Origin: a virus
Lineage: Duplodnaviria > Caudoviricetes
Length of the DNA stretch: 64,000 nt
Strand: one strand, 5' to 3'
IMG/VR virus record: IMGVR_UViG_3300020172_000524
Location: 12,652 to 76,651 of that record
Part shown: positions 19,014 through 39,797 of the stretch, piece after piece
How positions within the stretch are numbered: position 1 is the first letter of the stretch
Layout: each line of letters starts with the position of its first letter
Notes under the pieces: model-generated
Told to the model about the DNA's origin: nothing
The model's database searches: none
What the model saw: the letters and a program-made list of their open reading frames with translations, nothing else
Program-made: the position numbers and the translations under genes

Positions 19014-22000
19014 ATGCCTAAAGAACCTGTATATAATGTATCACCTAAAAGTGGGATATTAACTAGTCGAACAGTAAACTTAGCAGATCCTAATGTATCT
19101 AATGCATTAGTTTATGCAGACATAAGTGCTAGAAATACTCAAGCACAAGTAGCTCAGATTAATCAAAAGAAAGAAGCAGAAAGACTTAAAGCAGCAAATG
19201 ATGCTAAGATTGACGAAGCATTGGAAGCAGCAGCTAAGATTAACTTAGAAAACGCAGGAGCATTTAATACTAATGTTTTTGGACAACTAGCAGGAAGTGC
19301 AGACTTACCTGCTTTTACTATTAAACCACCTGCAGGATCTCAGGTATTAGCTGGAGGTAAGTTTAAGTTACCTGATGGAAGAATTATAAGTTCAACTTCT
19401 CTTGCTGCACCTACACAAACAAAAGCACAACCTACACCTGATCAACTAATAGAACAAGAGACTAAAAGATCTAGATCTATTATTGAGGATAGCTTCGGAG
19501 CAAAAGATCCTATTTCAGAAGATCTTAGTAAAAAAATAGAACAACTAGAATCTCAAATAGCAAAGATAAAAGTATTTGATGAAGAATCTGTTAGTCAATC
19601 TACTACTGCAGCTGCAGCTTGGGGGGGACAACAAGATCCTTTGTTGAGTGCCTATTTGTTTAATGCAGGAAGTAGAGTTGCTAGTGGAGAAACTAAAACA
19701 AATGAAGAGATTTTACAAGATAAGAAAAAACTTCAAACTCAATTAACTGAACTTAAACAAAGTCAAGTAGCAATCAACTCTTTTAAAGCTGATTTACAGA
19801 TTAAAAAAGTTACTACAGATTATCTTACTGAGTTAAAAGGACAAGGTAAAAAGTTTGGAGAGCAAGATGCAGCAGCTTTAGTACAGAAATCAAAAGAGAT
19901 TACAGCAAACCAAAGACATTATACTAGGGGAGATGAATTGTATGACGATAATACATACAATACTTACATAAAAGAATTTCAAGGAAAGAATGATTTCTTT
20001 GACTGGAGACATACTGAAATGAGTTTAGGTAATGCAATAAACTCTGTTTACGAACAGATAAAGACTGCAAAAGGGCCTGAGAGAGAAGAGTTAGTAGGAG
20101 TTCTTGATCAACTAACCAAGTATAATAAAAAACACGAGAGTTCTAATAAGGATGCTTATGACCATTACTATGGAGGATCAAAACAGTACTATAAAGAAAA
20201 AACCCCTTGGAAAACATATTTAGGTAACCAAGTTGGAGGAGGGGTTACAGAAGGATTATATAATGCTTTAGGTACAATAACTAGTGCTTCTCAAGATTTA
20301 TTAGGATACCACTCTGCTGCATTTGCTACAAGACAAAGTAAGGATAAGTATTTTTCAGCCGACATGCTTCAAGCAGACTTAGATGGAGATGGCCAAATTA
20401 CAGAAAAAGATAAAGACATTAACGGGCAACATCAGTACATTGGAAAGAATGTTACCTACACAAAAAAAGATGGAAATATAGGTTTTATTGGGCAGTCTGT
20501 TTTAGGAGCTTCTGTAAGAACTCTTGCAGAAATGGGACCTACTCTTTTAGCAACACACGGACTAATGAAAGCAGGAGTAGGAATGAGGACTGCAACTTTT
20601 GCACCTGTTGCTTTAACTTCTACTATTCGTTCTTATGAAGAGAATCGTAAATGGTTTAAAGATAAAGGAACTGCAGCTTTAGTGAGTGGTATTCAAGGAA
20701 TTATTGAAGGAGCAACTGAATCTATTGTTCCAGACATTAGTTACTTTATGGGTAACAAAGGATTAGGAACAAAGGCTTTGTCGGGTTTTAGCAGAAAATA
20801 TTTTACAGCTCAGACTTTAGTTCCTGAGTTTACAACACTTTCTAAAGGAGCAAAGAACTTTTTATTAGGAACGGGTTATGCAGGACTAGCTTTAGGTAAA
20901 CAAACTTTACAAGAAGGTTTTGAAGAAGAACTTTCAATGTTTGCTAACTATGTTTTAGATAAACAAATTAAAACGCAAGATGATGCTTATCTAAATACTG
21001 AAGGAAAACTAGGAAGACCTCAAGAGTTAGATGACAGTAGTGTAGGAGGATTCTTTAAATCAATAGCTCAGACTTTTGTAGAATCTGCAGCTGCTGGCTT
21101 ACTTATGTCTGGTACTGCTATAGGAAGTTCTCGTACTCAGGATAGAAACTACATGCGATTTAACATTGCAAATAATCCTGAGCAGTTTAAAGCAGAGCTC
21201 AAGACTCAACTAGAAGAAAAGAAAATTACCCAAGATCAATACAATAAAGGAATCTTGGAAACAGGTCGCTTAGCTCAACTACAAGAACAAGCAACTAATA
21301 CTATGATGAACTTAGTAGACTCAGAAAATCTACTACAAGATCACGATAAACAATATGAATATTTTTCTCAATTACTTACTAGAGATGATCTACTACAAAA
21401 AGTAGATTATAATTCTTTATCTGAAACAGAAAAAGAAGAGTATGTTAAGAAAGTAGAGAGTGTAGAGAAAGATATAGATAAGTTTGAGAATTCAGCAAGA
21501 CAGTATGCAAATATGCCTAAAGAACAAAAAGAAGGCATTCTTGCTAAGATGGTTCAAAAAAATCTTGAAAGTGTAAAGACCACAAATAATCCTGCAGTTC
21601 TTGCTAAAAACTTAGAAGCTATTGATGATGCTATTCAGATAGGAGAGAAGACTGGTAAAGGCTCTCAAGTAATGCTTTTAGGCAGACAACAAATAAGAGA
21701 AGCTTTAATAGGACAGATACAGAGACTTCAGACTGTAGAAGATAATGATAATACTGTATTTGAGAATCAATTATTAAATAGCCCTATAGAATCTTCTGGA
21801 GAATCTATGCAGATTAGTAACGGAGTACGACTTGCAGCTTTAGTAATGCAAAACTCTAATCTTATTAGGTCTGAAGTTCAAACTCAACTTTTAGATAAAA
21901 TTAAAGTTGCTTCAGAGACTGCTCAAAGTAGAATGCAAAATCTATCCAGAAGAGAACAAAAGAAAATTGCAGCAAGAGAACTTGCACGAGTAGAACTTAT

Positions 22001-24959
22001 TCATCCAGGAACAGCATTTAATGCAGACGCATTAGAGCTTCTTTTTAAGTTAGATTTAACTCCTGAAGAACATTCAGATGTAGTAAGAGATGCTTCTGTT
22101 ATAACTGCTAGAGAAAAAGAAAAGATTCAAGATGAAGATATCTTCCAACCTACAGAGAAAGACACTGTAATTGATTCTTTAATCAAGTCTTTTGAGTCTC
22201 AGCCTTTAGAAGTTCAAGTAGAGAACGAACAAGGTAACTTAGAGACAGTAAGAAACGAAGAAAGAAAGACTAGGGAGATGAGAGCAATCTTTGCTATTCC
22301 CAGATCTAAATCTAAAGAACAAGCTAAGAATAGAATTAAATCTATTTTTAAAGCTATGGGATATAGTGCAGAGGATATTAACAAAGCACTAGAAGATCTT
22401 AACCAAGTGTTTGATAATCAAGAGGTTACAAATCCTGGTGACATTTATACTTCATATTTAAGATTCTTAAATCCTACTTTACTTAAAGGTTTACCTGATA
22501 AGGTTGTTCCACAAGAAGACATTCTAGCAGAAGAAGCTCCTACAGAAGTAGCAGCAACTCCTACAGAAGTAACTCCCGTTGTTGAAGTTACTCCTTCTAC
22601 CTTAGAAGAAGATGAACTGTTTGGAACTAACGAAGAGATTGATGCAGCAAGAGAAAAGAAACTAGAGATTCCTGAAGTAGATCCAGCTGACCAAGTTGTA
22701 GAAGTTACAGTAGAAGCACCCGTAGTAGAAGATGAGTTTGATGGCTTAGAGGTAGTTCCTGTAAATACAATAGAGTCTTCTGACTTAGTAGCAACTACTC
22801 CTACTTTCTCTACAAGTAGTAACTCTGCAGTACAGGGTTCTATCATGAAGACTATAAGCAATTCTGTAGAGTCCTTTAACTTAAAGTTGGTAGATATGTT
22901 TTCTTTCATTAGAGAGACTTTAGGAGAGTCATCTATATCTACTCTAGAGAACATCTATAATAACGTAACAGAGGCGCTTAAAACAAACAACCTAGAAGCT
23001 ATTGCTAGACTTAAAGAAGACTACTTAGCTGTATTCAGTGGTAGTACATTTGCTAATGAGCAGTTAGAGTATATCTGGAAAGAACAGTATATAAAAGGAA
23101 AACCTGATGCTTCTATTCCTTTTCAAGACTTAGCTTATGTTACCAACGGACAGTTTGCTATAGCATATCAAGGAGATGAGGTAATTGTTACTGGAGTAAA
23201 TAAGCAAACAGGAGAGATGTTTACTTATAATGCCACTGTAACAGGTAAAGTAAACGAATCAAATCAGATTGAAGTTAAGACTCGTAATGGTAAAATAGTT
23301 TATATTAAAAAGAGTAACCTTCAAACTATTGCTTTTAGGCCGATTAATGTAAGAACAACCTTCAACCAAATTAACTCTGTAATGATTACAGCAGTAGATA
23401 GAACTAGTGGAGAGATTGCTAAGTTTAATTCTAACGGAGAAAGAGATGCTCAAGGAGATACTCAGTTAAATGTGTTTGCTCCTAGAGAAAACGATACCAT
23501 GAAAGAAGTAAGAAAGAATCTTGCTTCAGGTCAACCTATCTCTCACACTCTTCCTATTCATACAGGAGCTAGAATAAACAATAGTGCTGCTTATAAAAAA
23601 GGAAAGAACTCTGTTTACTTAACTGCTTCAGTTGCAGGCATAGATACTAGTATTCAAACAGTAGAGCCTGAGATAGAAACTCCTGCTCAACCTCTACCTA
23701 TTTCAGAAGAGGTTGTTAAAGAAACAGAAGCAAAAATAAAAAGAAGAGACTTATTTGATGGTGTAGGAGAATTTTCTAGGATACTAGGAAATAGTGGAGT
23801 AGATTCAGTTCCAGTATCACACTCTGAAAACAATGGTATAGAATTAGTTCAGTATGCAAATCCAAAAACTGGATCTGTAGACGTTATTGTAACTGGAACT
23901 TCAGAAAATGACTTTGTTGGTTTCTATCGTATTTACGAGAACGGAAAGCCAACAAACAAGTGGAGTTCAAAGTTTGAAAACCAGTCTAGGAATAAGGAAA
24001 ACTTCAAGACAATGATCAGTGGCGTACAGTCAATGCTACCAAGTGATCATGAATATACAGAAAAAACAAGCATCTCTACCGATGGTTTAAGAGTTTGGAA
24101 CCAACAACTTGATAGAGGTTACGAGTTACAGTATGACGAAAATGGAAAATTAAAAACAAACTTAGTAGCCATTAATGGGGATGCTATTCAAAATGAATTA
24201 GGTATACCTGTAAACAAGGGCAATTTTGAAAATATAAAAGTAAAAACAGAAGAAGAGTTTGAAATATCAAAGAAAGCTTTGTTGCCTTATCTAGAAAAAC
24301 TAGGGTTGAATGAAAGCAATATTTATTATAACTCTGGTACTATTAAAATTGATTTGCCTATATTAAAAAAATCTTTACCTACTCAAGCTACTGCTACTAC
24401 AGCACCTTCAGTTGATATAAGTAAAGAAGTTATACTTAGTGGTTTAAGGGGGGGATTTAAAGCAGTGTCATACTCATCATTTGATATACGAAGTGATGAG
24501 AATGTAATCAATCAAATAGAAAGAAACAAGTCATTTTCAACTACTATAGAAAGAAAGGGCAAAAAATACGTATTAGTAGGGTTACGTATAATTCAAGATG
24601 TAGGCGCTACAACTTTAGGTAGGGATGGTTACTCATTTGCTATGATAGAAGACAATGGAAGTTTACCCAGTAACATTGTAGACCTTCTTAAGGAACAAGC
24701 TATAAACAATGTTTCAAACATATATCCAAACATTGATGCTGTTGAATCTTCTTTCGAGCCAATAAAAGTACCTGTTCAATTAGTTGCTTTAGAACAACCA
24801 GCATTTGAACCAGAAGTAACTACTAACTTAAGTAAAGATGAGTTAGCTATTCTTTCTTTTGATGTTAGTTCTATTGAAGGACTTGAGGGAGCTACTGAGT
24901 CTTTAGACCAGAATACTAGCAAAGAGATAGATGATGCAGGTAGCTGTAAGATTAATTAA
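19014..24959 (+). CDS. Large cargo/ejection protein (start revised from 18954)
   Basis: About 1980 aa; Gly/Ala hydrophobic region with EGFEEE motif; EF-hand-like loop; single Cys 4 residues from the C-terminus. Confidence 0.7.
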   Translation: MPKEPVYNVSPKSGILTSRTVNLADPNVSNALVYADISARNTQAQVAQINQKKEAERLKAANDAKIDEALEAAAKINLENAGAFNTNVFGQLAGSADLPAFTIKPPAGSQVLAGGKFKLPDGRIISSTSLAAPTQTKAQPTPDQLIEQETKRSRSIIEDSFGAKDPISEDLSKKIEQLESQIAKIKVFDEESVSQSTTAAAAWGGQQDPLLSAYLFNAGSRVASGETKTNEEILQDKKKLQTQLTELKQSQVAINSFKADLQIKKVTTDYLTELKGQGKKFGEQDAAALVQKSKEITANQRHYTRGDELYDDNTYNTYIKEFQGKNDFFDWRHTEMSLGNAINSVYEQIKTAKGPEREELVGVLDQLTKYNKKHESSNKDAYDHYYGGSKQYYKEKTPWKTYLGNQVGGGVTEGLYNALGTITSASQDLLGYHSAAFATRQSKDKYFSADMLQADLDGDGQITEKDKDINGQHQYIGKNVTYTKKDGNIGFIGQSVLGASVRTLAEMGPTLLATHGLMKAGVGMRTATFAPVALTSTIRSYEENRKWFKDKGTAALVSGIQGIIEGATESIVPDISYFMGNKGLGTKALSGFSRKYFTAQTLVPEFTTLSKGAKNFLLGTGYAGLALGKQTLQEGFEEELSMFANYVLDKQIKTQDDAYLNTEGKLGRPQELDDSSVGGFFKSIAQTFVESAAAGLLMSGTAIGSSRTQDRNYMRFNIANNPEQFKAELKTQLEEKKITQDQYNKGILETGRLAQLQEQATNTMMNLVDSENLLQDHDKQYEYFSQLLTRDDLLQKVDYNSLSETEKEEYVKKVESVEKDIDKFENSARQYANMPKEQKEGILAKMVQKNLESVKTTNNPAVLAKNLEAIDDAIQIGEKTGKGSQVMLLGRQQIREALIGQIQRLQTVEDNDNTVFENQLLNSPIESSGESMQISNGVRLAALVMQNSNLIRSEVQTQLLDKIKVASETAQSRMQNLSRREQKKIAARELARVELIHPGTAFNADALELLFKLDLTPEEHSDVVRDASVITAREKEKIQDEDIFQPTEKDTVIDSLIKSFESQPLEVQVENEQGNLETVRNEERKTREMRAIFAIPRSKSKEQAKNRIKSIFKAMGYSAEDINKALEDLNQVFDNQEVTNPGDIYTSYLRFLNPTLLKGLPDKVVPQEDILAEEAPTEVAATPTEVTPVVEVTPSTLEEDELFGTNEEIDAAREKKLEIPEVDPADQVVEVTVEAPVVEDEFDGLEVVPVNTIESSDLVATTPTFSTSSNSAVQGSIMKTISNSVESFNLKLVDMFSFIRETLGESSISTLENIYNNVTEALKTNNLEAIARLKEDYLAVFSGSTFANEQLEYIWKEQYIKGKPDASIPFQDLAYVTNGQFAIAYQGDEVIVTGVNKQTGEMFTYNATVTGKVNESNQIEVKTRNGKIVYIKKSNLQTIAFRPINVRTTFNQINSVMITAVDRTSGEIAKFNSNGERDAQGDTQLNVFAPRENDTMKEVRKNLASGQPISHTLPIHTGARINNSAAYKKGKNSVYLTASVAGIDTSIQTVEPEIETPAQPLPISEEVVKETEAKIKRRDLFDGVGEFSRILGNSGVDSVPVSHSENNGIELVQYANPKTGSVDVIVTGTSENDFVGFYRIYENGKPTNKWSSKFENQSRNKENFKTMISGVQSMLPSDHEYTEKTSISTDGLRVWNQQLDRGYELQYDENGKLKTNLVAINGDAIQNELGIPVNKGNFENIKVKTEEEFEISKKALLPYLEKLGLNESNIYYNSGTIKIDLPILKKSLPTQATATTAPSVDISKEVILSGLRGGFKAVSYSSFDIRSDENVINQIERNKSFSTTIERKGKKYVLVGLRIIQDVGATTLGRDGYSFAMIEDNGSLPSNIVDLLKEQAINNVSNIYPNIDAVESSFEPIKVPVQLVALEQPAFEPEVTTNLSKDELAILSFDVSSIEGLEGATESLDQNTSKEIDDAGSCKIN

Positions 24960-24994
24960 TAAGAGTTAAAAGTAGTATAAATACTAAACTAAAG

Positions 24995-25002
24995 TATATT
25001 TG
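24995..25002 (+). promoter_or_regulatory. -7 promoter element 5 nt before the vRNAP ATG
   Basis: TATATTTG-taaag-ATG, intergenic. Confidence 0.55.
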
Positions 25003-25007
25003 TAAAG

Positions 25008-28000
25008 ATGGCAAAAATAATCTGCCCTACCAGGGAAAATAAAGACTTTTCAAACTTAAGCAATGCTATAGGTAGTGATGCCTTAGCAAGATATGTATGG
25101 CTTCAACACGGTAATCTTCCTTTAAATGTAACGGAGGATTCTGAAGGAAACATTGTTCCTAATGAAACCTACAAAAGAATATTAAATGAAGTTGCAGACG
25201 GTAACGAAAATCTTGCCTTAGATACTACTTCTTTGATGTACTACCCTAGTTTTAAAGAAAAGTATGCTGAAGAAGATCCTGCTTTTATTGTAGACTACAT
25301 TAAACAAGAAGCACAGGACAAACAAGAGAAGGCAGCTAGAAGACAAGCTCAAGTTGAAGAAGAGAAGATTATTCCTGGAACAAAGACTCTTTACATTCAA
25401 TCACCTGAAGGAGATGTTGTATATACTCAAGAAGAAGGAAAAGAAATCTTTGACAGTTTAGAGTACTTAGCGTCTACTAAAAAAGGTTGGAAGGGTGTAG
25501 TCGAATCATTGAAAGAAAGAGTCACAGACATTCAAACAAAGATTAAGAATGGTGCAAGCGATCCTGAAGTAACTGTTACTCCTCAAGAACTTTTAATCGG
25601 TAAGAACTTAGTCAACCTTCTTAAGCATTGGCCTCAAGTAAAAGCTTGGTATCTCAGTCAAGATACAAACTTTGGCTTAGAGTTACTTGAAGATGAAGTA
25701 GATCAAGAGACAGGAGGAAGTGTATACAATAAGAATGCACATGAACGCAGTCAGATGGATTTAGCATCTGCTGAAGTTATTAAATTAGTACAATCTCTTC
25801 CTAGGTATAATAAACTTACTACACAAGATCGTAAGGATGTTAAAGAAGGCAAGAAGAGTATTACGGACTTTCAAGTAATCAGTAACCTAACAGGCTTTCC
25901 CGTAGTCGGAACTTTCTCTACTAACTGGAATGTACTTACTTCTAGTTTGTCTGGTATTACTAAGTATGATAAAATCTTACAAGAGTTAGAAGTAGTTGCT
26001 CAAGAGTATCCTCAGTTTAGAGACTTAGCTAACATGCTTCCTAAGGAAGACATACAGGATGCAGACCTAAAGACTGCAAACTTTGTAGCTTCTTTTGTAC
26101 AGACTGTATCTCTACCTGAAATAGGCGCCTATCAATTGTCTATTGGAAAAAGAAATGTAGGTAAAGAAGTTAAGTTAACCTCTAAAGTATTTAAGTTAGG
26201 CACTAGAACAGTAGACAATCTAATTCGTTACTTTGACGAAGACTACTTTAAGTCTAATCCTAGCTACGGTATTTTAAACGATGAAGGAAAGACTGTTTTA
26301 AACATTCCTAAACTATTAGCAGACTTCAGAGGTATTACAGATATTCGTAGATTCTTCGCAGACAAAAATAATATAGACTCCCCAGAAGGAAGAAAGCTTC
26401 TTCAAGGCATCCACAAGTTCTACAATGCATTAGGTATAATTCCTAGTAATGCTCTTTACCAAAAAGACAAGAAAGCTTTGTATGACTTCTTAGCTGATAC
26501 TACGTTTGAAGTAAGAGAACTATATGATAAGTTAGAAGCTAGTATCGATGATAAAACAGTTACTCAACCACTACAGTTTTTAGCTAGACCCCAAGGTTCA
26601 GGCAAACAACTTGGTCCTAAGTTTGATATTGTAAATAAGATTGTAGGTTACTATGGTAAGTTTGAGAGAGAGTTTGCTTCAGGTTCTTACTATAACCCTG
26701 AGGATAAACTACAATACAATCGTGTACAATACTTTTATCTTACTCAAGTAACTAACGCACTTAATAGTGTAAACAGTTATAACGAGTTAATTAGTAAGCC
26801 TGAGTTTGCTCATTTAGACTTTAGATTAAATCCTAATATTCTTGGTTCTGTATGGATGGAAAGAATGTTTGGTGTTAGTCTTAAGGGTAAAACTATTGGA
26901 CAACTTAAGAAAGAACTAGACGGAGGTAAAGAGTTTCCTAGACTTAAAACTAAGTTTAGTAAAGAGCCCTTTAAGATCGACATAGTAAACTATTCTGGTT
27001 TAAGCATTGATGCTGACGTAAAGAAAGGTGTTACTACTACAGAACTTACAGCAGAAGATAAGATTACACAAGACTTTATTTCTTTCTTTGCTGGAGGAGT
27101 AGTAGAAAACATTCGTTTTGGTGACAAAGGAACTTCTTACGCTACCGTTACTTCAGGTAAGATAGAAGAGAGAATGTATATTCCTTTGAATAGCGAGATC
27201 ATGGGTATGCCAGAAAAGCCTACCTCTGTAGTGGAACAAGCACTTGTAGCACAGTTTAAAGATTATCTTACCTCTGAAGTATATCGTATTCTTGCTATCA
27301 ATAAGGATACAAAGAAACACACCTACAATAAGAATGGAAGACAGTTGTTTTTATTTAAAGACATGCTTCCAAAAGAAGACTATGATGCTTTGACTAGTGA
27401 AGATGATGCAGTAGTAAAAGAAGCCTATGGTAGAGTCGTTAATCAACTTCCTACTTATCTAGGTAATTATTTTGCAGAACAGACTAAGGCTTATAAAAGT
27501 CGTTTATCAGATTCTGTTCTTGGAGATACTTCTGCTATTATGTCTTCGATTACAGAAGAACAAAGAGAGGAGCAATTAGTAAATTCTATTAATGCATTAG
27601 GATTTATGGACCCTGCTTTAAGTAAAGTAGGATTAAATAAAAACAATCTAGATTACGTTATTGCAAACTACTTAAAGAACGACTTTATTCATAAGGCAGA
27701 GTTCATGAAAGTGTTTGTAGGAGACATTGCTAACTTCCAAGTTAAAGGTGACTTCCGTGAGGTCTTCAAGCGTATTCCTCTTACCTCTTCTCCTGGATTT
27801 GTTTTCCAAGACAATCCAGTAGTAATGGCTCACTTAAACAACAGTAGTGGTACTAACGGACTATACAAAGCCCTTAGAGGTGGTGGAAGAAAGTTTGGTA
27901 AGACTGTAAGAACTGTAGTATTTAATGACGTTAATACTTTTTCTAAAGAAGATTGGCCTACGTATAGAGCTGCTTTAGGACTTCCTGATACTATGGAGTA

Positions 28001-31000: not shown

Positions 31001-33215
31001 TTCTAGAAAAGTTAAAGACAATTACTTAGTTGCTATGGTACAACTCTTTGGGGTTGATAACACAGGAACCAAGTTACAAGATAAGTTCTTCTCTAAAGCA
31101 GGATTACTTACTAAGAGCAATCCTAATAACTTAGCTAAGCGTATTGCAGACATCCAAGAGAAGTATAGTGACTTATCTAAGAATCAAGTTTTAGCAAACC
31201 TTTACACAGCTGAGACTAACTCTGATAATGTTATTTTCAAACTTAGGAATGCAAACCTAGATAGTTACTTGATTGGAGAGTATGAGAAAGCATTTATTAC
31301 AGGACTTAATGACGTACGTCCAGACGTACGTGAAGTATTCCAGAATCTTGGCTTAGGAACATTCCTTCAGTTTGGATTTGCTAAAAACTCTTACGGTCTA
31401 TCTCAAATAATTCCTTATGAGACTTATGTAACTCACACAACTCAAGCAGTAGCTAGACTTAAAGAAGGATTACAGGATGAACAGTTTTCAAAGTCTATCT
31501 CTAGGTACATAGGATTAATGACTTACTTCAATGATAGTAAGAATGTTCCTACGTTGGTTTTAAATTCTAAAGTAGCCAACGATGCTTACAATGCAGACTA
31601 TTTAGTTACTGTAGGAAGAGATGCTGATACCCTAGACAGTGCGCTTAGAGATATTGCTAACTTTAAAAGTAAATCTTATACTAACTTTGAGAACATTAAA
31701 TCTAAAGGTAAGTTTAGAGGTCTTCCTATAGAGTTAGTAGATGTTATCCCTACTAAGAAGACTACTCCTGTAGCTATGAGAAATAGAGAGGGTACTATTC
31801 TTATTGATGAGAAAGCGTTCATCCAGAAGTTTAATGATAAAGCTTGGACTGAGCCTGTTAAACAATCAGATGATAGTTTTGCTACTCCATTAGCTTTAGA
31901 TGAATTTCAATCAATAGAAGAGTTCTTGACGTTTGCTCTTATTCATGAAACAAAGCATAACACAGTCAAGAGAGTAGACGGAGAGACTGTTGGGCAATAC
32001 GAAGACAGAGTTAATCAAGCTGCTTTACAAGACTTACGTTATAGTTACCGTAAAGGTCAAGCAATTACAGCAGTTCCTTTTCAACCACTAAACGTACCTA
32101 CTCAACCGTCTACTAGCGTTAATAAATTTGATAAGAAAAATTTATTTACTGTAACTCCTATAAAAACTGCTGATAAAAAAGCAATTATTAAAGCAAGTAT
32201 TGCTACTCAATATATAGGATTTGGTGAAGGTATCCAGGGAAGTTCGACAGAATTATACAGACAACAGGTATTACAACAAACTTTTAAACAAATTCCTAAA
32301 GTAGGAGATGTTGTTACAATGACATTTGAAATAGACTATAAAGATGTTGAAGTAGCAGCTAAAATAACTGCTTTAAAAATTAATCTAGAAGAGTCTATAA
32401 GTAATAAAGGTTTTGCAGTCGATTTAGAAAACATCAAAACAGGTAAAAAATATGAAGTATATGTAGATACAGACGGTTCTATTTCACAGTTTGTAGGTAA
32501 AAAAGGATTAAAAATAGGAACTGATAACTATATAAAAGAGTTTAATATTGATGCTCAAGAGAACAATATTGTAAATTCAGGTAACTACTCAGCTGATGAT
32601 GTTATATTTGTATCTGTTCCAGGTAGAAGAGGTACTGAATTACAACAAAAAACTCAACAAGATAGAACTATTAAAGAAGCTGTTAAAGCTGTGGAAGCTG
32701 GAGCTACTATTCTTACTGATAATAAATCTTATATAGACTCCAATAAATATAATACAGGGGAACAAAGACTTTATAAAAATATGGAGTCTAAAGGTTATAG
32801 CTACTCTGAAATTACAATTGATGGTCAATTAATCGGTACTTGGAGTAAATCTACTCAACCATCTACTGGTGTTAAGGAAGAAGTAGCTGAAACACAAGTA
32901 GCAATCCAACAGAACTTTAACTTAAAGGAGGGATCTAAGGTACAAGTAAATACGAGTGATACTTCTTTTGAAGTAGAGTTAAAGACCTTTAGACAGAGAG
33001 ATAATGTAGTAGAACTTTCTTATGTTAATTCTTTTGGTGTACAGATAGGATATCGGGGAAAAGTTAGAAGTGGTACTTTATATCCTACAGAAATTTTTAA
33101 TCAAAGAAAAGGATGGAGTAAGCTAAGTACAGCTAGTTATGTTGATATTCAATTATCTAATATGCCTTCTTCTCAAGATACTAATCAAACTATAACAGAT
33201 CCATTTAAATGTTAA
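25008..33215 (+). CDS. Virion-packaged two-barrel DNA-dependent RNA polymerase (crAss-like vRNAP) with C-terminal accessory modules
   Basis: Catalytic GSDFDIDK loop preceded by RIPVQG; EADAQG motif; 2735 aa; position in cargo cluster like phi14:2 gp66. Confidence 0.9.
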   Translation: MAKIICPTRENKDFSNLSNAIGSDALARYVWLQHGNLPLNVTEDSEGNIVPNETYKRILNEVADGNENLALDTTSLMYYPSFKEKYAEEDPAFIVDYIKQEAQDKQEKAARRQAQVEEEKIIPGTKTLYIQSPEGDVVYTQEEGKEIFDSLEYLASTKKGWKGVVESLKERVTDIQTKIKNGASDPEVTVTPQELLIGKNLVNLLKHWPQVKAWYLSQDTNFGLELLEDEVDQETGGSVYNKNAHERSQMDLASAEVIKLVQSLPRYNKLTTQDRKDVKEGKKSITDFQVISNLTGFPVVGTFSTNWNVLTSSLSGITKYDKILQELEVVAQEYPQFRDLANMLPKEDIQDADLKTANFVASFVQTVSLPEIGAYQLSIGKRNVGKEVKLTSKVFKLGTRTVDNLIRYFDEDYFKSNPSYGILNDEGKTVLNIPKLLADFRGITDIRRFFADKNNIDSPEGRKLLQGIHKFYNALGIIPSNALYQKDKKALYDFLADTTFEVRELYDKLEASIDDKTVTQPLQFLARPQGSGKQLGPKFDIVNKIVGYYGKFEREFASGSYYNPEDKLQYNRVQYFYLTQVTNALNSVNSYNELISKPEFAHLDFRLNPNILGSVWMERMFGVSLKGKTIGQLKKELDGGKEFPRLKTKFSKEPFKIDIVNYSGLSIDADVKKGVTTTELTAEDKITQDFISFFAGGVVENIRFGDKGTSYATVTSGKIEERMYIPLNSEIMGMPEKPTSVVEQALVAQFKDYLTSEVYRILAINKDTKKHTYNKNGRQLFLFKDMLPKEDYDALTSEDDAVVKEAYGRVVNQLPTYLGNYFAEQTKAYKSRLSDSVLGDTSAIMSSITEEQREEQLVNSINALGFMDPALSKVGLNKNNLDYVIANYLKNDFIHKAEFMKVFVGDIANFQVKGDFREVFKRIPLTSSPGFVFQDNPVVMAHLNNSSGTNGLYKALRGGGRKFGKTVRTVVFNDVNTFSKEDWPTYRAALGLPDTMEYQEYVNSPKEADAQGLVSLDFYRNYLIGLGQWSQEQENAYLNEIEIFKILNKKEKTEEDYAKMQELKASMNYVGFPPLKLGHYGPIVEDPKLTALHKYSLAPMIPSMIAGTQLEELNKQMIAKQIDYATFNSGSKASNYGDALDFYVPDVNNQGTLKVNPSIKGNNVTTLHLTNLKQQQYIAPKFKNEATLATQMVKLIFGDFFAQGKLTDLNASTAKTISDLYKDYTNVLGNIIGAEEINLFNKLGISKDAQGNIVGFDNKKFYNFLKGELEKRDTSASLKRYIQLDEAGNIKYPLDATKNRAEIENILLSIINNKVISQKLHGESYVQMASTAQGNTRFTKPTEEQIKKYGINGLRFYRKGPDGTEPADVKIAFNPKKHAGLLNLTFRGKKIGTIDNLNKILKSNNQEAIDWVNQHTKKLSLVGVRIPVQGLNSMEYFRVREFLPTSAGPVIVVPSQIVVKSGSDFDIDKLTMFEPKLDANGEIVGDGGFDLGKYRESLPSQKEAMRMLKTLIEAKQALSEVLAVTPVYVNKKQLEKEIQELTESISSTEEEIGKFSNKKMNLEELQALMSEGSSEKENLIKAKIEEAKALAKSGDLAASLPVLKALKSEIKNYVESVNGVRNFKQANVNKLIDIFTSVLSMKENYDKLVLPNTNTVLTEISDKLNANPITSTELFSPLTSNRVYGDNIESKKALGIDAKLNTMQKEFQIAGLVYTNELSFMYPFSANKVGEGISLGEKTLTDGTSISRVISEAINGHVDIAKEDWIILLGLDKAKTPLFHAMILAGTPVKTALDFLNKPVVKYVLKESTRGPLFQQLGGRRGRRTDLTFNDILLDTFYELDSSEETYSIIQGSIVYNNSDNIKIKESILNIRSSVGSIENKEVADKVKDLVDLYMIKQLQGSIQQLTSLVDYNTKRFQNSYQVKADKITLGKIYSSFNSEGLNKLINKSALSKFNQSNSIESLMPQIFDVSNHPSVLDAITIYSNRARLFVEEDLVKASRKVKDNYLVAMVQLFGVDNTGTKLQDKFFSKAGLLTKSNPNNLAKRIADIQEKYSDLSKNQVLANLYTAETNSDNVIFKLRNANLDSYLIGEYEKAFITGLNDVRPDVREVFQNLGLGTFLQFGFAKNSYGLSQIIPYETYVTHTTQAVARLKEGLQDEQFSKSISRYIGLMTYFNDSKNVPTLVLNSKVANDAYNADYLVTVGRDADTLDSALRDIANFKSKSYTNFENIKSKGKFRGLPIELVDVIPTKKTTPVAMRNREGTILIDEKAFIQKFNDKAWTEPVKQSDDSFATPLALDEFQSIEEFLTFALIHETKHNTVKRVDGETVGQYEDRVNQAALQDLRYSYRKGQAITAVPFQPLNVPTQPSTSVNKFDKKNLFTVTPIKTADKKAIIKASIATQYIGFGEGIQGSSTELYRQQVLQQTFKQIPKVGDVVTMTFEIDYKDVEVAAKITALKINLEESISNKGFAVDLENIKTGKKYEVYVDTDGSISQFVGKKGLKIGTDNYIKEFNIDAQENNIVNSGNYSADDVIFVSVPGRRGTELQQKTQQDRTIKEAVKAVEAGATILTDNKSYIDSNKYNTGEQRLYKNMESKGYSYSEITIDGQLIGTWSKSTQPSTGVKEEVAETQVAIQQNFNLKEGSKVQVNTSDTSFEVELKTFRQRDNVVELSYVNSFGVQIGYRGKVRSGTLYPTEIFNQRKGWSKLSTASYVDIQLSNMPSSQDTNQTITDPFKC
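32098..32875 (+). repeat. 25-bp imperfect direct repeats (22/25) flanking an in-frame 753-bp module
   Basis: CTACTCAACCGTCTACTAGCGTTAA (32098-32122) vs CTACTCAACCATCTACTGGTGTTAA (32851-32875); both encode TQPST[S/G]V. Confidence 0.7.
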
Positions 33216-33219: not shown

Positions 33220-33732
33220 ATGGCAAGTTGCGACTTAAAAACAACAAACAGAGAATACATGATATCTACGGGAGCCTTAGAACAAGGTTCTCGTAAGATA
33301 AAAAACGAAGGTCTCTTTGATGTAAAGAATGCAGAGATTAGAGATGCTGCTAATCAACGTTACAATCTAAACACTCAAGAACTTCCTTTCAGTAAAACAG
33401 AAAGAACTATTTCCAGAAGTGAGTATCTTAAAAGAGGGTCTGACTATTTTGTAGAATGGAACTTTAATGATAAGTTCTTTGATGAAGTAACTCCCACAGT
33501 AGAGTTTTATAAGTCTATGGAAGAAAATGAAATAGAAGATGAGATCATACCTACTTATGATCAGTTGCAGATTCCATTCGAAGAGTTAATAGATGAAGAT
33601 GTGATTGTTAAAGACAGTCCTACTAGATCTACTTTTCCTTTTGAAGCTGAAGACTATCTGGAAGATGTTAAGCCAGAAACTAAAGCTAATTTAAATAAAC
33701 TCCAATTCAAAGAACAACAGTGTGGTCTTTGA
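33220..33732 (+). CDS. Small acidic cargo-cluster protein (possible linker)
   Basis: 170 aa between two giant cargo genes; Cys only at residues 4 and 168. Confidence 0.65.
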   Translation: MASCDLKTTNREYMISTGALEQGSRKIKNEGLFDVKNAEIRDAANQRYNLNTQELPFSKTERTISRSEYLKRGSDYFVEWNFNDKFFDEVTPTVEFYKSMEENEIEDEIIPTYDQLQIPFEELIDEDVIVKDSPTRSTFPFEAEDYLEDVKPETKANLNKLQFKEQQCGL

Positions 33733-33733
33733 T

Positions 33734-33741: not shown

Positions 33742-33767
33742 TATATATTCTAACTTAAGATAAAATA

Positions 33768-36700
33768 ATGTCCTGTAAAGCAACTATAAAATCTCCTATT
33801 ACTGGTAAGACAGTTATGTCTACTACTTACTTTCAGTTAACTAATGTGTTTGACAAAGAGAAGGCTGTAGATATTTATAACAGTATGTATACTCCAGCAT
33901 TCCAAGACTTACTTGGGTTTGATTGGACTACAAACAAACAGTATAGAGAAGAGCTTAACTTAAACGGAGAGCCTAAGATTGAGTACCTTAACAAGATACT
34001 TAATTTGGAAATGTCTGATTATCAGATAGATGCGATCAACTCTCAAGAGGATATCTTGACTCAGTTAGATCCTATGCAGAACTTTCCTAGCTACGAAGAA
34101 GCTCAAGTTGTTGCAGCTCAATTTAACTTAAACCCAAGATACAAGAATGTATCTGCAGAAGTAATAAGAACAGATGATGGTTTCAGAGTAGCAGTAGGTG
34201 TTTACAGTATAGCTAGACCAGAAACTAAAGAAACTTTAAGTGCTCTTAACTTTGGAGAGATTATCTCTCAGTTCTTTCCTAGTAGCGATACTAATTGGAA
34301 TGATGTAGTATCAGGATTACTTACTAGCGATCGTATCTCCGATACTCAAAAGACTATCTTATCTAAATTACAAGAATTACAAAACATCAACCCTAGTGTT
34401 AAGCTAGTAGTGTTCGATGATACAGACTCTATGGATGCAGGTCAAGTAGCATTCTATGACAATAACTCACGTACGATCTACATAGGTAAGACTGTAAGTG
34501 AGAGTATGGATGATTCTAAGCTTATTAGAGACATTATCCACGAGTCTATGCATGCTTACACCATTAAGGCTTTGAATGAACCTGTAACAGATCAGGAGAA
34601 GGCATTTAAGGCAGAGATGGAAAAGGCTTACAACTCTTACTTGAAGAAGTTTCCTAACCTAGTTGTTAACTACGGATTTAACAACGTAGAAGAGTTTGTA
34701 AGTGAGGTAGTATCCAACCCAGATTTTAGAGCAGCTTTAATCACACAGCAAGAGTCTCTTAAAGAAGATAAGAACTTCTTAAGAAACATGATAGAGAAGA
34801 TTACAAACTTCTTAAAGGGTTTGTATACTGACGTTCCTAACTTAGAGGAGATTGATTCTACCATCAATAATTATCTAGATCACTTAGTTGAGACTAGAGA
34901 TATGCCTGTTACTCAGGGAGAATATGACTTAAGATTCAGAAATGAAAAGTTTAATCCCAACGGAGTTACAGACTTAGAAAGATTCCCAGAGTTACAGAAG
35001 TTTGTAAACTTCATCAATAAGAACTCTTCTACAAAGATGTGGGGACAGATTACACAATCCCTTAAAGAGATTGACTCTTCTCTTAGAAACACTGGTAGAT
35101 TACAAGAACGTTTCACTAGTATTAATGCTACTAACGCTAAAGATATCTTAGCTAATACTATTAGTTATTTAAATTCAGCTTTATCTACTCTTTCAACTGT
35201 ACAGAATCAACTAGAACTTTACAAGAAGAACGCTTCTGAGTTTGAAGACTTTGCAATCATTAAGACTTTTAACTACGCTAAGAACTTAAGTGGAGTAATC
35301 AAAGACCAGCTTAATGAGTTTGAAAAAGAGTTTAACTCTATCTTTAACGTAGCGGATATAACAGACATGCAAGAGAAAGCTAGCACTATTGAGGCTTTTG
35401 AAATGTCTGTACCTAACTACGAAGAAGTAGTTAGAGAGATTTTAAGCAGTATAGAAGGTACTCGTAAGTTAGCGGACTCTATTGACAGTAACTATAACAA
35501 CGCAGTAATTGCTCCTATTGCTAGAGAGTTGTCTAGTTCTTTTGGAGAGAGTGCAACAATTGAAGGTAAGAAAAGAGTACAAGAACAACTTGCAGCATTA
35601 GTTGCAGCTAAAGCCAAAGCAGACTCTACTGGTAAAACAGCTTTATCTAAAGTTTTAGCTAGAGAGATTGAAGACTTACGACAGTTAGAGAAGTTTATTC
35701 CTACAGCTAAGAACATTGAAGAGCTTCTTAAAAACGATAAGAAGAACGGAAGAGAGACTAGTTTGTTAGGTATGTGGATTAACAATGCAGTTCAAGGTAA
35801 GAATCCTACTGTCCAAATTGTTAAACAGTTTATTGATAAGGCTACTGCAGAAGCTCAGGTAAACTCTGGTAAGTTTAGTAAGCGTGCTCAAGATATCTTT
35901 GATAGACTACGTGCCCTTAGAGGTAAGTTAGCTACTGAGGTAATGACTTACCAAACCTTATATAAAGGTTTTACTAGAGAGGTAGAAGTTTTACATAAAC
36001 AACCAGATGGTTCTTTCAAGAAAGTAAAGCAAGCAATCTTAAACACTAAGTTAAAAGAAGAGGAGTTCCAGAATGATCTTAAGATTCTTTTACAAAGAGA
36101 AGACGATGCTTTAAAGACAGGTAACCAATCTGCTATAGACTCTACCAAAGAAGCTACTAATAAGTTCTTAGAAGAGTATGCTATGCGTCCTTACACAGAC
36201 GAATACTATAAGATTCAAGGCTTACTTACAGAAGAAGCTAAGCAAGCAAGAGAAGAGATCTTATCAGAGATTAGTTTCTTATCAGAAGATCCTAATCCTG
36301 AGGAAGGAACTAAAGACGAGATCAAAAGACTCTTAACTGAGTTTAATCGCTTAGGTTCTCTTTACTATTCTAATGGAGATGAGAAGCCAGCAGGAAGTAA
36401 AGAAAGAAGAATAGCTGAATCTATTATGGCTTGGAAGAAGGAAAGAAACAATCGAGATGTTTTAACCTACGACAACCTAACTAAGAGAAAACAGTGGCAG
36501 ATCCAAAAGAATGAGATAGATGAACAGTACTCTAAAATTTTAAAAAGAAAGAATGCTTCAGATATTTCTATGTCTATGGCAGGATTTGCAGAAGTGGCAG
36601 ACGAGAATCTGGCAGAACAGAATGAAAATATCACTAAAGAGTTTGAAGAAGCTAAGAAAGTAAGAGATCAGTGGTACGAGGAGAATACAAAAACAGAAAT

Positions 36701-39700
36701 TGCACCTGAGTTCTATCGACAACAACAAGCTATCACTGATTCGATTAATGCTATTCTTAGTAGGTATCCTACTTTTGATGCACAAGATCTTACTGATGCT
36801 TACCAAAGATTAAACAATGCAGTATTAGGCTTTAGAGATAACGATGGAGCTATCCAAGGTAATGACGTTGTTAACGCTGGTAACTTGTTTCAGACTGTAA
36901 AAGAAATAGAAGAAGAGATAGAAACCATTAAGAAAAATAGTCAGGCTAGGGAAGTAAGCAAAGATGACCAAGAAGAGTTGGCTAGACTGTATAAGATGCT
37001 TAATGCTTTGCAGGGTAGAAAAGAAACTCAATACTATAAAGACAAAGTATCAGAAGTACAGGCAAGTATCAGAACAGAGTTAGCTCAGGATGAAGAGTTC
37101 ATGAAGGACTTGGATGAAAAAGCTAAAGCTAGAAGAGATTCTTACATTGCAGCACAGTTAATGAATACTTTTACAACAGTAGAAGATGTTAAACAAGCAA
37201 TGATTGAGGAAGAGATAGAAGATAGGTTTAGAGCAACTCAATGGTATAAGGACAATCACATCGTTACAGAAGAAACTAGAATCGTAAACGGAGATACAGT
37301 AACAACTACAAAAGAAAGACCTTCTTATATTTGGACTCAGGTAGTACCTAAAGATCCTAGAAATATTATAGAAGAATCTCCTTCTTTTCAGTGGGCTATT
37401 CCTGTAATTGATGAGACTTTCAAGAATAAAGATTATCGTTTTACTACAGAACCTAGACCTAGAGAAACTCAAGATGGTAAATACTCTAACCCAGAGTATT
37501 CTAGCTTACCTGCACAAGAGAAAGCTATCTTAGATGATATTATTGCTTTACATGAAGACGTACAGAAAGAGTTGCCTAAGAGTCAACGTGTAGGGTATGC
37601 TATTGTAAACGAAAACAAGACAGCATTTGAAACTTTATCTACTGCTTTAAGAAAGCCTCTAGATACATTCTCAGGAATCTATGAGTTGTTTAAGTTAACA
37701 TTTGCACCTAACATAGGATCTGCTGAGTACGAAAGATTAGATGACTCAGAAGTAGAGGTTATTAGTGGAAGAAAGGTACAATTGATTCGTAGTCGTTATA
37801 AGACTCCTTTAAACACTAACCAAGTATCTTATAATATTCTAGGTAACATTGCTAAGTTTGGTGTTTACTCTTCCCACTTTGCAGCCATGCAGAAGATTAT
37901 GCCTACTGTGTTCAGCACAAGAGACGCATTAGAGAGAAACAAATCAGCAGAAAGTACTTTATCTACAGTAGACTTCGAAATTTCTAAGAACTTCTACGGA
38001 GAAGAAATTAGTTCTATGGGTAACAATAAGTATGTAAAACTTATTAGTCGTCCTTTAAATAAGTTCTTATCTGTAGGTCAACGTAAAGCTTTACAGTTTA
38101 ACGTAATTGCATCTATAAAGAACTTTGCAATCAACTTATGGAACGCAGGTATAAACAATAACCTAGCAGGTGTAACTAGAGCAGAGTTTATTCAAGGTAT
38201 GTGGAGAGGTATCAAACAATCAGATAAGATGTTTGAAGTGTACAGAGGAGGAGGAAATGTTTCTTACTACGCAGATTTATTGATGCATTTTAATGCTATG
38301 CCACAAGCACAACCTGGAGCTAAAGCAGATACTATCCATCAGACTATGTTGAATAGGTTTGTTTCTAGTGAGACTGCAGGATTTGTAGTACGTGGATACT
38401 TAGAAAGTATTTCTACTATTGCTGTATTTGAATCTATCATGAACCAATATAACGTTCAGATAGAACAGGGAGGAACAACAAGAACTATTAAGTTAGCAGA
38501 AGCTTACGAGCAAGTAAATGGTAAACTTCAGCTTAAAGCAGGAGTTAAAGTAGAGAAAATAGATCGCTTAGAGCAAGAAATCAGGGATAGAATCTTTAAC
38601 TACTTTACTTCATCTCAAGGTAACTACTATAAGAGAGGATCTGCTCAGTACGAAAGATACATTATTGCTAGAATGGTGATGAGTATGAAGCGTTGGCTAA
38701 CTAGCACATTTAATAATAAGTATGGAGCGAGAAGACTTCAGTTAAACACAGGTAACCTAGAGAAAGGATTTAACAGAGAAGTTATGTCTTATGTCCAGTT
38801 GCTAGCTTTGGGAGGTAGTTCTATGGCTAACCAGATGACTACTGATCAACAGAAATCTAGAATGCGTACTGCAGCAACTAACTTAGTAGCTATGCTTGCT
38901 GTTCAACAAGCTTTAATTACTACTATGGGTATACTTGCTAAGTCCTTAGATGATGATGATGAAGAGCCTACTAGTCCTTTCTTGGCGTTTATTGGTAATA
39001 TTCTTCAGGGTATGCATGATGAGTTAAGTACCTTTAGTCCTTTAGGAGCAGCAAACTGGGCTTACAAATCACTCCTACAAACTCCTCAGAAACAACCAGG
39101 AGAGAGTGATGCAGTAGCAAGAGCTAAACAAATAAGTTGGAGTTTGATTGGAGGTACAACCAAGGCTTCTTATGATGCTTTAACTCCTTTCTTTGATAAG
39201 GATACTTGGTTAGATCCTGCAGGTTCTTTTACTTATAGATATACTAACGGAAAACCCGATTCTTTTAGTACTCCTGAAGCATTAGAAGGAAAATCAAACT
39301 TACTTGCAGCTTTCATGATTTATACGGGAGCAGAAGTAGGTATGAGTCAATTCCTACAACCAGAGAAGAAGCTTTATACAGTTCTAAAATACAATCCAAG
39401 GTTAGACTTTACAGAGGAAAGAAGAATTAAACTAGATCCAATGGGAAGCTACAATGAGTTGAGTGAAAGGGTAACAGCAATAAAAAAAGAGTTGAAGTCA
39501 GTAGTTCCCTCAGAGATAATAACAGATAGAGCAGAAAGAGACGCTAAGATTTCCGAAATACTAGTCCTAGAGAAAACCATGGAAACAATAGGAGAACAAT
39601 ATTCATATGTAGGAGCATACTATAGAAATAGAAAGTTTGCTTCTTCTTTGGGTAGTTCAGAAGCAGCAGATCTAGATAAGGAGATTAAAAGATACCAAAT

Positions 39701-39797
39701 ACAGAATAACCCACAAGATTTTATCAGAGAAAAGATAAAGTCTAAACAGGAAAGTCTAGAAAATAAAAGAGCTAAGGAGAGACTAAGGGGAAAATAG
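33768..39797 (+). CDS. Large cargo/ejection protein with zincin-like metallopeptidase domain
   Basis: 2009 aa; AFYD..TIYI..IIHESMHAYT..EEFVSE zincin pattern; hydrophobic C-terminal helices; single Cys at residue 3. Confidence 0.75.
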   Translation: MSCKATIKSPITGKTVMSTTYFQLTNVFDKEKAVDIYNSMYTPAFQDLLGFDWTTNKQYREELNLNGEPKIEYLNKILNLEMSDYQIDAINSQEDILTQLDPMQNFPSYEEAQVVAAQFNLNPRYKNVSAEVIRTDDGFRVAVGVYSIARPETKETLSALNFGEIISQFFPSSDTNWNDVVSGLLTSDRISDTQKTILSKLQELQNINPSVKLVVFDDTDSMDAGQVAFYDNNSRTIYIGKTVSESMDDSKLIRDIIHESMHAYTIKALNEPVTDQEKAFKAEMEKAYNSYLKKFPNLVVNYGFNNVEEFVSEVVSNPDFRAALITQQESLKEDKNFLRNMIEKITNFLKGLYTDVPNLEEIDSTINNYLDHLVETRDMPVTQGEYDLRFRNEKFNPNGVTDLERFPELQKFVNFINKNSSTKMWGQITQSLKEIDSSLRNTGRLQERFTSINATNAKDILANTISYLNSALSTLSTVQNQLELYKKNASEFEDFAIIKTFNYAKNLSGVIKDQLNEFEKEFNSIFNVADITDMQEKASTIEAFEMSVPNYEEVVREILSSIEGTRKLADSIDSNYNNAVIAPIARELSSSFGESATIEGKKRVQEQLAALVAAKAKADSTGKTALSKVLAREIEDLRQLEKFIPTAKNIEELLKNDKKNGRETSLLGMWINNAVQGKNPTVQIVKQFIDKATAEAQVNSGKFSKRAQDIFDRLRALRGKLATEVMTYQTLYKGFTREVEVLHKQPDGSFKKVKQAILNTKLKEEEFQNDLKILLQREDDALKTGNQSAIDSTKEATNKFLEEYAMRPYTDEYYKIQGLLTEEAKQAREEILSEISFLSEDPNPEEGTKDEIKRLLTEFNRLGSLYYSNGDEKPAGSKERRIAESIMAWKKERNNRDVLTYDNLTKRKQWQIQKNEIDEQYSKILKRKNASDISMSMAGFAEVADENLAEQNENITKEFEEAKKVRDQWYEENTKTEIAPEFYRQQQAITDSINAILSRYPTFDAQDLTDAYQRLNNAVLGFRDNDGAIQGNDVVNAGNLFQTVKEIEEEIETIKKNSQAREVSKDDQEELARLYKMLNALQGRKETQYYKDKVSEVQASIRTELAQDEEFMKDLDEKAKARRDSYIAAQLMNTFTTVEDVKQAMIEEEIEDRFRATQWYKDNHIVTEETRIVNGDTVTTTKERPSYIWTQVVPKDPRNIIEESPSFQWAIPVIDETFKNKDYRFTTEPRPRETQDGKYSNPEYSSLPAQEKAILDDIIALHEDVQKELPKSQRVGYAIVNENKTAFETLSTALRKPLDTFSGIYELFKLTFAPNIGSAEYERLDDSEVEVISGRKVQLIRSRYKTPLNTNQVSYNILGNIAKFGVYSSHFAAMQKIMPTVFSTRDALERNKSAESTLSTVDFEISKNFYGEEISSMGNNKYVKLISRPLNKFLSVGQRKALQFNVIASIKNFAINLWNAGINNNLAGVTRAEFIQGMWRGIKQSDKMFEVYRGGGNVSYYADLLMHFNAMPQAQPGAKADTIHQTMLNRFVSSETAGFVVRGYLESISTIAVFESIMNQYNVQIEQGGTTRTIKLAEAYEQVNGKLQLKAGVKVEKIDRLEQEIRDRIFNYFTSSQGNYYKRGSAQYERYIIARMVMSMKRWLTSTFNNKYGARRLQLNTGNLEKGFNREVMSYVQLLALGGSSMANQMTTDQQKSRMRTAATNLVAMLAVQQALITTMGILAKSLDDDDEEPTSPFLAFIGNILQGMHDELSTFSPLGAANWAYKSLLQTPQKQPGESDAVARAKQISWSLIGGTTKASYDALTPFFDKDTWLDPAGSFTYRYTNGKPDSFSTPEALEGKSNLLAAFMIYTGAEVGMSQFLQPEKKLYTVLKYNPRLDFTEERRIKLDPMGSYNELSERVTAIKKELKSVVPSEIITDRAERDAKISEILVLEKTMETIGEQYSYVGAYYRNRKFASSLGSSEAADLDKEIKRYQIQNNPQDFIREKIKSKQESLENKRAKERLRGK

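Follow-up and report, generated by a model that had tools for sequence, protein, structure and literature searches.

The 64,000-nucleotide stretch analysed here, called the window throughout, covers positions 12,652 to 76,651 of the 76.6-kb IMG/VR virus record IMGVR_UViG_3300020172_000524, a record whose completeness is estimated at 65%. The virus is a crAss-like phage: both Crassvirales marker genes, muzzle and tail ring, are present (Pfam). Our subject is the RNA polymerase (RNAP) block at positions 19,014 to 39,797, a chain of four consecutive genes encoding a protein that we call A, a virion RNA polymerase (vRNAP), a linker of 170 amino acids (aa) and a protein D. When all open reading frames (ORFs) of the window were translated and their cysteine (Cys) positions counted, these four proteins, 6895 residues together, proved to hold six Cys, one at each of the six termini that face a neighbour in the chain. 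The features are as follows.

19014..24959, + strand: protein A, first member of the chain, 1981 aa, sole Cys at residue 1978 (..DAGSCKIN), from ORF translation
24945..24947, + strand: Cys codon at the C-terminal tip of A, present in 7/7 close IMG/VR relatives
25008..33215, + strand: vRNAP, 2735 aa, Cys only at residues 6 and 2735 (MAKIIC.., ..DPFKC)
25023..25025, + strand: Cys codon at the N-terminal tip of vRNAP; C6 is invariant in 16 alignment rows
33210..33212, + strand: Cys codon of the final vRNAP residue, the sole invariant column in the last 350 residues among 9 relatives
33220..33732, + strand: linker protein, 170 aa, Cys only at residues 4 and 168 (MASC.., ..QQCGL)
33229..33231, + strand: Cys codon at the N-terminal tip of the linker (linker alignment)
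33721..33723, + strand: Cys codon at the C-terminal tip of the linker (linker alignment)
33768..39797, + strand: protein D, final member of the chain, 2009 aa, Cys only at residue 3 (MSC..)
33774..33776, + strand: Cys codon at the N-terminal tip of D; M1 and C3 are invariant in 11 alignment rows

We place the start of A at ATG 19014 and not at TTG 18954, as its relatives also begin MPKEP..; its only Cys lies three residues before the C-terminus. An earlier note, made by a model from the letters of the window, had counted six Cys in the four cargo proteins, all near termini, at codons 24945, 25023, 33210, 33229, 33721 and 33774, and had read from them three C-to-N junctions in gene order between Cys-free outer ends. 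Translation reproduces the count exactly, the codons follow from the residue positions, and the Cys positions bear out both the junctions and the free ends. Six Cys are to be compared with about 111 expected from the 1.61% Cys of the 38 other ORFs of the window (Poisson P(≤6 Cys) = 2e-39). The probability that all six would lie no more than six residues from a terminus is 1.1e-13 and, given terminal Cys, that of occupying all six facing termini and neither outer end is 0.003.

Judged by its sequence, the 2735-aa protein is a crAss-type vRNAP of the phi14:2 gp66 type, a two-barrel RNAP. It matches phi14:2 g066 by tblastn (1e-15), and a profile built from it and 15 homologues matches the gp66 structure (PDB 6VR4, 6vr4_A) at 3.1e-70; a single-sequence phmmer search against PDB sequences returned nothing relevant. 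The DFDID catalytic motif starts at about residue 1464, with D1464, D1466 and D1468 invariant in 16 rows. Homology and the position of the gene after the muzzle and cargo genes indicate that the polymerase is probably packaged and ejected. Protein D is a homologue of phi14:2 gp65 (blastp 1e-15) and carries an HExxH at residues 258-262, in which H258 and E259 are invariant in 11 rows (consensus LIHExxHA), the motif of a possible zincin-like metalloprotease domain. An AlphaFold model of its N-terminal part (pLDDT 72.3) gave no Foldseek match in PDB at E≤0.001, only weak rows of HExxH proteases. D has no Pfam match, PHROGs and Pfam together hold no family for A, vRNAP, the linker or D, phmmer with A and D against PDB sequences gave nothing relevant, and megablast of the 20.8-kb block against a phage collection found no match.

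Is this arrangement peculiar to one virus? All seven close IMG/VR relatives (linker 67-99% identical) retain the six Cys, with no internal Cys in their visible parts. In the linker alignment (7 rows), C4 and C168 are invariant together with M1, Y48, D88, E95, P140 and F163, and C2735 of the vRNAP is kept in at least 90% of 16 rows. Around that single invariant column the last 350 vRNAP residues are hypervariable: those of the two closest relatives (L019 and L022) are only 20-21% identical to those of the window, and the core of L019 is 92% identical. With the vRNAP core as query, phmmer found 2331 matches at E≤0.001 among 1.84 billion representative proteins, and we took family counts from the best 150 of these at no more than 50% mutual identity. 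Among these 150 homologues, a Cys lies within the last ten residues of 142 and within the first ten of 97, where it occupies position 3 (53 proteins), 4 (23), 5 (13), 6 (7) or 7 (1). Internal Cys number 93 in 493,129 residues (0.019%), against 8% in the terminal windows, and 99 of the 150 have none. The N-terminal Cys is rarer in the longest homologues (11 of the 39 with at least 3800 aa) and in fragments (2 of the 14 under 2300 aa). The tip-Cys pattern is a family rule, not a peculiarity of the window.

The vRNAP tails also vary in content. That of the window (31600-33212, + strand, residues ~2200-2735) makes the protein about 370 residues longer (2735 versus 2362-2364 aa) than relatives with 83-92% core identity, and the extra part includes an HExxH-like string, IHETKH, at about residue 2313. 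The vRNAP tail at L024:16900-17695 has a P-loop-like string, GTSGSGKST, which is absent from the window vRNAP and suggests a kinase-like or NTPase module.

Gene junctions were compared in loci obtained by an IMG/VR profile search in which the catalytic-motif pattern D[FY]DIDK[LM] was used, 80 loci with 10-kb flanks that clustering at ≥80% identity reduced to 62 (18 of the 80 were left out as near-duplicates). At junctions between adjacent + strand ORFs, Cys stood on both sides in 107 cases, on neither in 105 and on one side in 13 (Fisher test for facing Cys 3e-47, uncorrected for shared ancestry). Two of the 13 discordant rows come from L030 and L032, where the sole Cys of A lies 18 and 20 residues from the end; six are L035 and L063 junctions bordering four small ORFs inserted between chain members; and five arise beyond the downstream end of the chain, from small unrelated ORFs three or four genes further on and one 82-aa ORF after D in L087. 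With a C-terminal window of 25 residues and the four inserted ORFs skipped by hand, the chain junctions of the 62 loci have Cys on both sides in 113/113 cases. The visible outer ends, that is, the N-termini at chain starts and the C-termini at chain ends, are Cys-free throughout. The whole chain is visible in 26 loci, and comprises one protein in 1, two in 5, three in 14 and four in 6. The 175 chain proteins have 30 internal Cys in 409,219 residues (0.007%), whereas the remaining ORFs of these loci contain 1.04% Cys. The check that the earlier note had set for itself, terminal enrichment with covariation at the junctions, therefore came out in its favour, the Cys covarying with gene breaks across relatives.

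The insertions in L035 and L063 leave the Cys tips of the flanking chain proteins in place. At L035:11711-13050, L063:278-763 and L063:10024-10641, small Cys-containing ORFs sit exactly at chain junctions. Two of the ORFs inserted at the junctions of these loci have what looks like a GIY-YIG motif and may be homing endonucleases of that type.

Ten reference Crassvirales (four lineages, plus FpV4) obey the facing-Cys rule, with one exception, IAS virus. The proteins gp67-gp66-gp65 of phi14:2 and gp47-gp50-gp49 of crAss001 are homologous to the block of the window and have the same tip Cys. In phi14:2 these are C1797 of gp67, C3 and C2179 of gp66, and C3 of gp65; in crAss001, gp47 has only C2339, gp50 has C5, C1334 and C2404, and gp49 only C5. 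The pattern is kept in crAss001 even though gp47, its homologue of A, lies on the opposite strand to gp50-gp49. RNAP-block proteins of Crassvirales are present in virions, and in some phages they are fused (bioRxiv 10.1101/2020.03.07.982082; PMC10172136). Internal Cys are about 15 times commoner in the gut crassviruses than in the aquatic isolates phi14:2 and FpV4: the faecal phages (L010-L017) have 72 in 51,842 aa of RNAP-block protein (0.139%, 19 proteins) and keep the tip Cys, whereas phi14:2 and FpV4 (L008 and L009) have 1 in 11,281 aa (0.009%) and the window 0 in 6895. This difference between sequences fits redox-linked selection and does not prove it.

As far as the sequences go, tip Cys are strictly coupled to gene breaks, and fused forms of the block display this most directly. 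FpV4 gp32 is a fusion of A and vRNAP (4287 aa) whose sole Cys, at residue 4286, faces Cys 3 of gp33; in the gut phages cr118_1 and cr53_1, the C-terminal Cys of an A-vRNAP fusion stands opposite MIC.. or MQC... A is also fused to vRNAP in six IMG/VR loci, where over 3000 residues precede the catalytic motif; Cys is absent both from the N-terminus of these fusions and from the C-terminus of the proteins just upstream. In the Intestiviridae p-crAssphage, crAss002, cr110_1 and cr271_1, vRNAP is fused to the gp65-like C-terminal part; the fusions have no C-terminal Cys, and their MSC.. start stands opposite the penultimate Cys of the preceding protein. Three of them have deposited starts 14-32 codons upstream of the in-frame ATG that gives MSC.. 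(CrAssphage ZA, L012:15774-28049; crAss002, L013:16545-29282; cr110_1, L015:17229-30482), and the Cys rule suggests that this ATG is the true start. At L077:4745-19753, a single vRNAP-containing protein of 5002 aa lacks terminal Cys; no + strand ORF of at least 80 aa follows it in that locus, and it may represent the block either fully fused or shortened.

Domains of the RNAP block are thus found fused in relatives, as a split polyprotein would require. The break between A and vRNAP falls between 1377 and 2810 residues before the catalytic motif. On a vRNAP-core tree (FastTree, 69 rows, with long-branch warnings, and without four Intestiviridae proteins, which the motif pattern did not match), this break needs at least six changes and the presence of a Cys-tipped linker at least seven. 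The L026 linker and the unsplit L025 vRNAP share a homologous C-terminal end (5.7e-5), and at the corresponding internal position the L025 protein lacks Cys.

What kind of link could the tips make? Nearly every tip has a single Cys (240 terminal Cys at 239 Cys-bearing termini of the 150 homologues), no CxxC occurs at the tips of these homologues, and His is depleted there (0.37% and 0.67% versus 1.08% overall). Tip Cys are encoded by both TGT and TGC and vary in exact position, which argues for selection at the protein level. Their surroundings are weakly conserved, with class trends only: 24 of 56 D starts have C-P-N or C-P-I, and 26 of 45 vRNAP starts have C-[AST]-[LI]. Flexible tips tied by a simple covalent bond would account for this pattern better than would a conserved metal site.

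A tie of this sort has a precedent. Cryo-electron microscopy of the cyanopodophage A4 (Anabaena phage A-4L, Saffermanviridae) found a disulfide between gp27 Cys1715 and gp26 Cys5, two adjacent pre-ejectosome proteins (PNAS 2025, PMC12002296), and in the A-4L genome these are the sole Cys of gp27 (1717 aa) and of the product of the next gene, gp26 (1114 aa). Like the crAss block, the A4 pair consists of large internal ejection proteins from neighbouring co-oriented genes, and like the window it has a sole C-terminal Cys upstream facing a sole N-terminal Cys downstream; however, A4 has one junction rather than three, and no RNA polymerase. The earlier note, which knew of no description of such a system, had overlooked this pair, a case with one junction and no general rule. 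The available text of the A4 paper assigns the bond a local role, that of stabilising a helix-in-cleft contact, and does not connect Cys pairs with gene breaks in any rule (PMC12002296).

Other ejected proteins are poor in Cys as well. In Schitoviridae (N4, DEV), as in the crAss block, a giant vRNAP (gp50/gp71) is ejected with companions and Cys is strongly suppressed (PMC11445570). However, these ejection proteins have essentially no Cys, tips included, and the few Cys in gp72 homologues are put down to probable annotation or sequencing errors in the available text of that paper (PMC11445570). The Schitoviridae vRNAP also differs in fold, which is unrelated to that of the crAss polymerase. 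T7 gp14, gp15 and gp16 (L099:1229-8052) resemble the crAss block in being consecutive, ejected and nearly Cys-free, but no two Cys face each other: Cys 2 of gp14, its only one, meets no Cys at the C-terminus of gp13, and gp15 and gp16 are Cys-free.

For crassviruses, the word 'cysteine' occurs in the available text of neither the phi14:2 preprint (10.1101/2020.03.07.982082) nor the crAss001 atlas (PMC10172136), and 'disulfide' occurs 0 times in that of the former and 7 times in that of the latter, each time in connection with the tail or gp57. For the fused forms the preprint proposes cleavage by proteolysis; it does not propose that split forms are re-joined (10.1101/2020.03.07.982082). In the literature on Crassvirales we found no description of tip-Cys junctions or of cargo-protein cysteines. 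The type of bond is already known from A4; new, as far as this literature reaches, are the chain of several junctions that includes the vRNAP and the order-wide rule pairing Cys with gene breaks.

What is directly established is that the Cys pattern exists, is conserved and is coupled to gene breaks, and that A4 offers a structural precedent. On these grounds, partly by analogy, we think that the RNAP block is probably a split polyprotein re-joined head to tail by one disulfide per junction, which would allow ordered ejection and reductive release. The polyprotein would have been split into four genes, A, vRNAP, the 170-aa linker and D; at each junction, a Cys a few residues from the upstream C-terminus would bond to the Cys at residue 3-6 of the downstream protein, and wrong pairs would be avoided by the purging of all other Cys. 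Because the link lies at the very tips, the joined proteins would be topologically almost one linear thread, whose parts would pass through the tail one behind another, always in the same order and in 1:1 ratio, until the host cytoplasm reduced the bonds and freed the separate proteins. Such a near-linear product would suit the transit of partly unfolded cargo through tail constrictions, which measure under 50 Å (PMC10172136). The earlier note had the cargo pass unfolded, whereas Bayfield 2023 describes partial unfolding (PMC10172136). Of the end-to-end linkage that the note proposed, the terminal, facing and covarying Cys hold good, and a C-to-N disulfide of the kind is seen in A4 gp27-gp26 (PMC12002296); the disulfide chemistry in crassviruses, its role in stoichiometry and ordered ejection and release by reduction are what we infer by extension.

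Several observations weigh against the disulfide-joined chain, in addition to the uncorrected ancestry of the junction table and the long-branch warnings of the core tree. The A4 precedent is an analogy and not a homology, because it shows no detectable sequence similarity to the crAss block: A-4L gp26-gp29, compared by blastp and phmmer with proteins of the reference phages and with module proteins of the 62 loci (at least 150 aa, within three ORFs of vRNAP), gave no match at E≤0.01. For no crassvirus did we find such a bond observed, chemically or structurally; as available, the crAss001 atlas mentions disulfides in its main text for the tail and gp57 only, and leaves the RNAP-block cargo unresolved (PMC10172136). 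Apart from the Cys, the flanks are poorly conserved, and no docking interface is evident, because the last 350 vRNAP residues are hypervariable. Oxidation to disulfides is a difficulty, because assembly takes place in the reducing cytoplasm and gut crassviruses live without oxygen, and neither thioredoxin nor glutaredoxin was found in the incomplete 76.6-kb record. The facing rule itself is broken once among 24 reference proteins, where IAS virus gp055 ends with a Cys and gp056 starts without one, and some upstream cargo proteins have an unpaired terminal Cys:

L012:4880-7267: 795-aa protein of p-crAssphage (CrAssphage ZA), unpaired Cys C794
L013:5850-7523: crAss002 gp30, unpaired Cys C550 of 557
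L009:8552-10348: FpV4 gp30, unpaired Cys C5 of 598

In IAS virus (L014:14117-23099), gp055 (837 aa; C5, C31 and C834) overlaps gp056 (2159 aa; 9 internal Cys), and the record has an ambiguous base. From the sequence, the two may be one vRNAP gene split by a sequence error.

As for the redox setting, the tail and gp57 of the crAss001 virion do contain disulfides, and the study ran reduced and non-reduced samples for mass spectrometry (PMC10172136). Two thioredoxin-annotated genes of CrAssphage ZA (L012:30221-31500) are encoded within a few kb of its RNAP block, on the other strand. Co-folding of 450 aa from the N-terminus of D and 100 aa of vRNAP tail with the linker gave scores of 0.22, 0.37 and 0.00 without controls and counts neither way.

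Could facing Cys have another meaning? As the earlier note also allowed, they might join the proteins by binding one metal ion together, such as a Zn held by the Cys of two junctions. This would explain the same pairing and covariation, and a metal link could form in the reducing cytoplasm, avoiding the problem of oxidation there and in the anoxic gut. However, since each tip has one Cys, no CxxC and depleted His, a tetrahedral site would need two chains to meet, and in A4, the sole solved case, the authors modelled a disulfide (PMC12002296); we regard a metal link as unlikely. It seems just as improbable that the terminal Cys are a redox switch, in which tethering would silence the vRNAP, or the D protease with its HExxH, inside the particle and reduction in the host would turn them on, while other contacts set the order of ejection. 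The phi14:2 preprint does ask how the vRNAP is activated and suggests the gp65 protease domain (10.1101/2020.03.07.982082), and the invariant HExxH of D lies 255 residues from its Cys tip; yet a switch fails to explain why A and non-enzymatic linkers of unrelated sequence (165-782 aa) follow the same rule, and it is compatible with a disulfide chain rather than opposed to it.

Slightly less probable again is that the terminal Cys are each modified or attached to something else (portal, capsid interior, DNA or lipid), their facing being a side effect of the anchoring of every terminus. The lone terminal Cys of p-crAssphage (C794), crAss002 gp30 (C550) and FpV4 gp30 (C5) would suit this, as would the inter-protein disulfides of the crAss001 tail (PMC10172136). 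But if every terminus were anchored, the outer ones would carry Cys too, and the outer chain ends are Cys-free in 26/26 loci with both ends visible; moreover, both Cys are lost together on fusion. Chance, or an artefact of composition or gene calling, hardly deserves consideration: the general Cys poverty of ejected proteins (PMC11445570) is all that speaks for it, whereas P is 1e-13 in the window alone, the pattern recurs in 62 non-redundant loci and 150 representatives, and it holds with our own ORF calls and with deposited annotations. Family counts, junction counts and window probabilities rule it out.

The surroundings of the block in the window are those of a virion module.

5746-6588, + strand: crAss tail ring protein (PF24228 CrAss_Ring_1, 2.3e-08)
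6594..11675, + strand: muzzle protein homologue, 1693 aa, 26 Cys (PF25731 crAss_MUZ, 1.7e-39)
within 12464..19002, + strand: three Cys-free ORFs of 478, 886 and 562 aa, from ORF translation
13897-14346, + strand: DUF6321 ORF, 149 aa, two Cys (PF19846, 1.4e-10)

The muzzle homologue places the RNAP block in the Crassvirales virion module, and its 26 Cys agree with the remark of the earlier note that outer structural proteins are Cys-rich. The note had also called the 886-, 562- and 478-aa proteins Cys-free, as translation confirms (zero Cys in 1926 aa, Poisson P = 4e-14). These three are likely other cargo or ejection proteins, and the 886-aa ORF has weak similarity to FpV4 gp30. The DUF6321 ORF has Cys 118 and a Cys as its final residue (..RRWKC), the latter without a facing partner, the next ORF being the Cys-free one of 886 aa. 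Downstream of the cargo block lies a holin family protein (PF05105, 4.6e-06; 40229-40654, + strand).

Crassvirales are the most abundant human gut phages, and how they deliver a cargo of about 5 MDa that includes an RNA polymerase is an open question (PMC10172136; PMC13434306). The Cys rule offers a concrete model for the stoichiometry of this cargo, its order of ejection and its release; it explains why gene splits and fusions at many places leave the block functional, and it gives annotators a marker for the true starts and ends of giant genes. If confirmed, it would generalise the single disulfide of A4 to a design principle for ejected protein chains. We put forward more tentatively, as a possibility somewhat short of an even chance, that across Crassvirales the RNAP block is a 'virtual polyprotein' of about 5,000-7,700 residues whose breaks drift freely, each healed by a tip-to-tip disulfide, so that a single covalent thread (A, vRNAP, linkers, D) would be ejected in fixed order and reduction in the host would both release and arm the polymerase. 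If true, this would be a redox-gated alternative to proteolytic polyprotein processing, of which the A4 pair may be an independent second instance.

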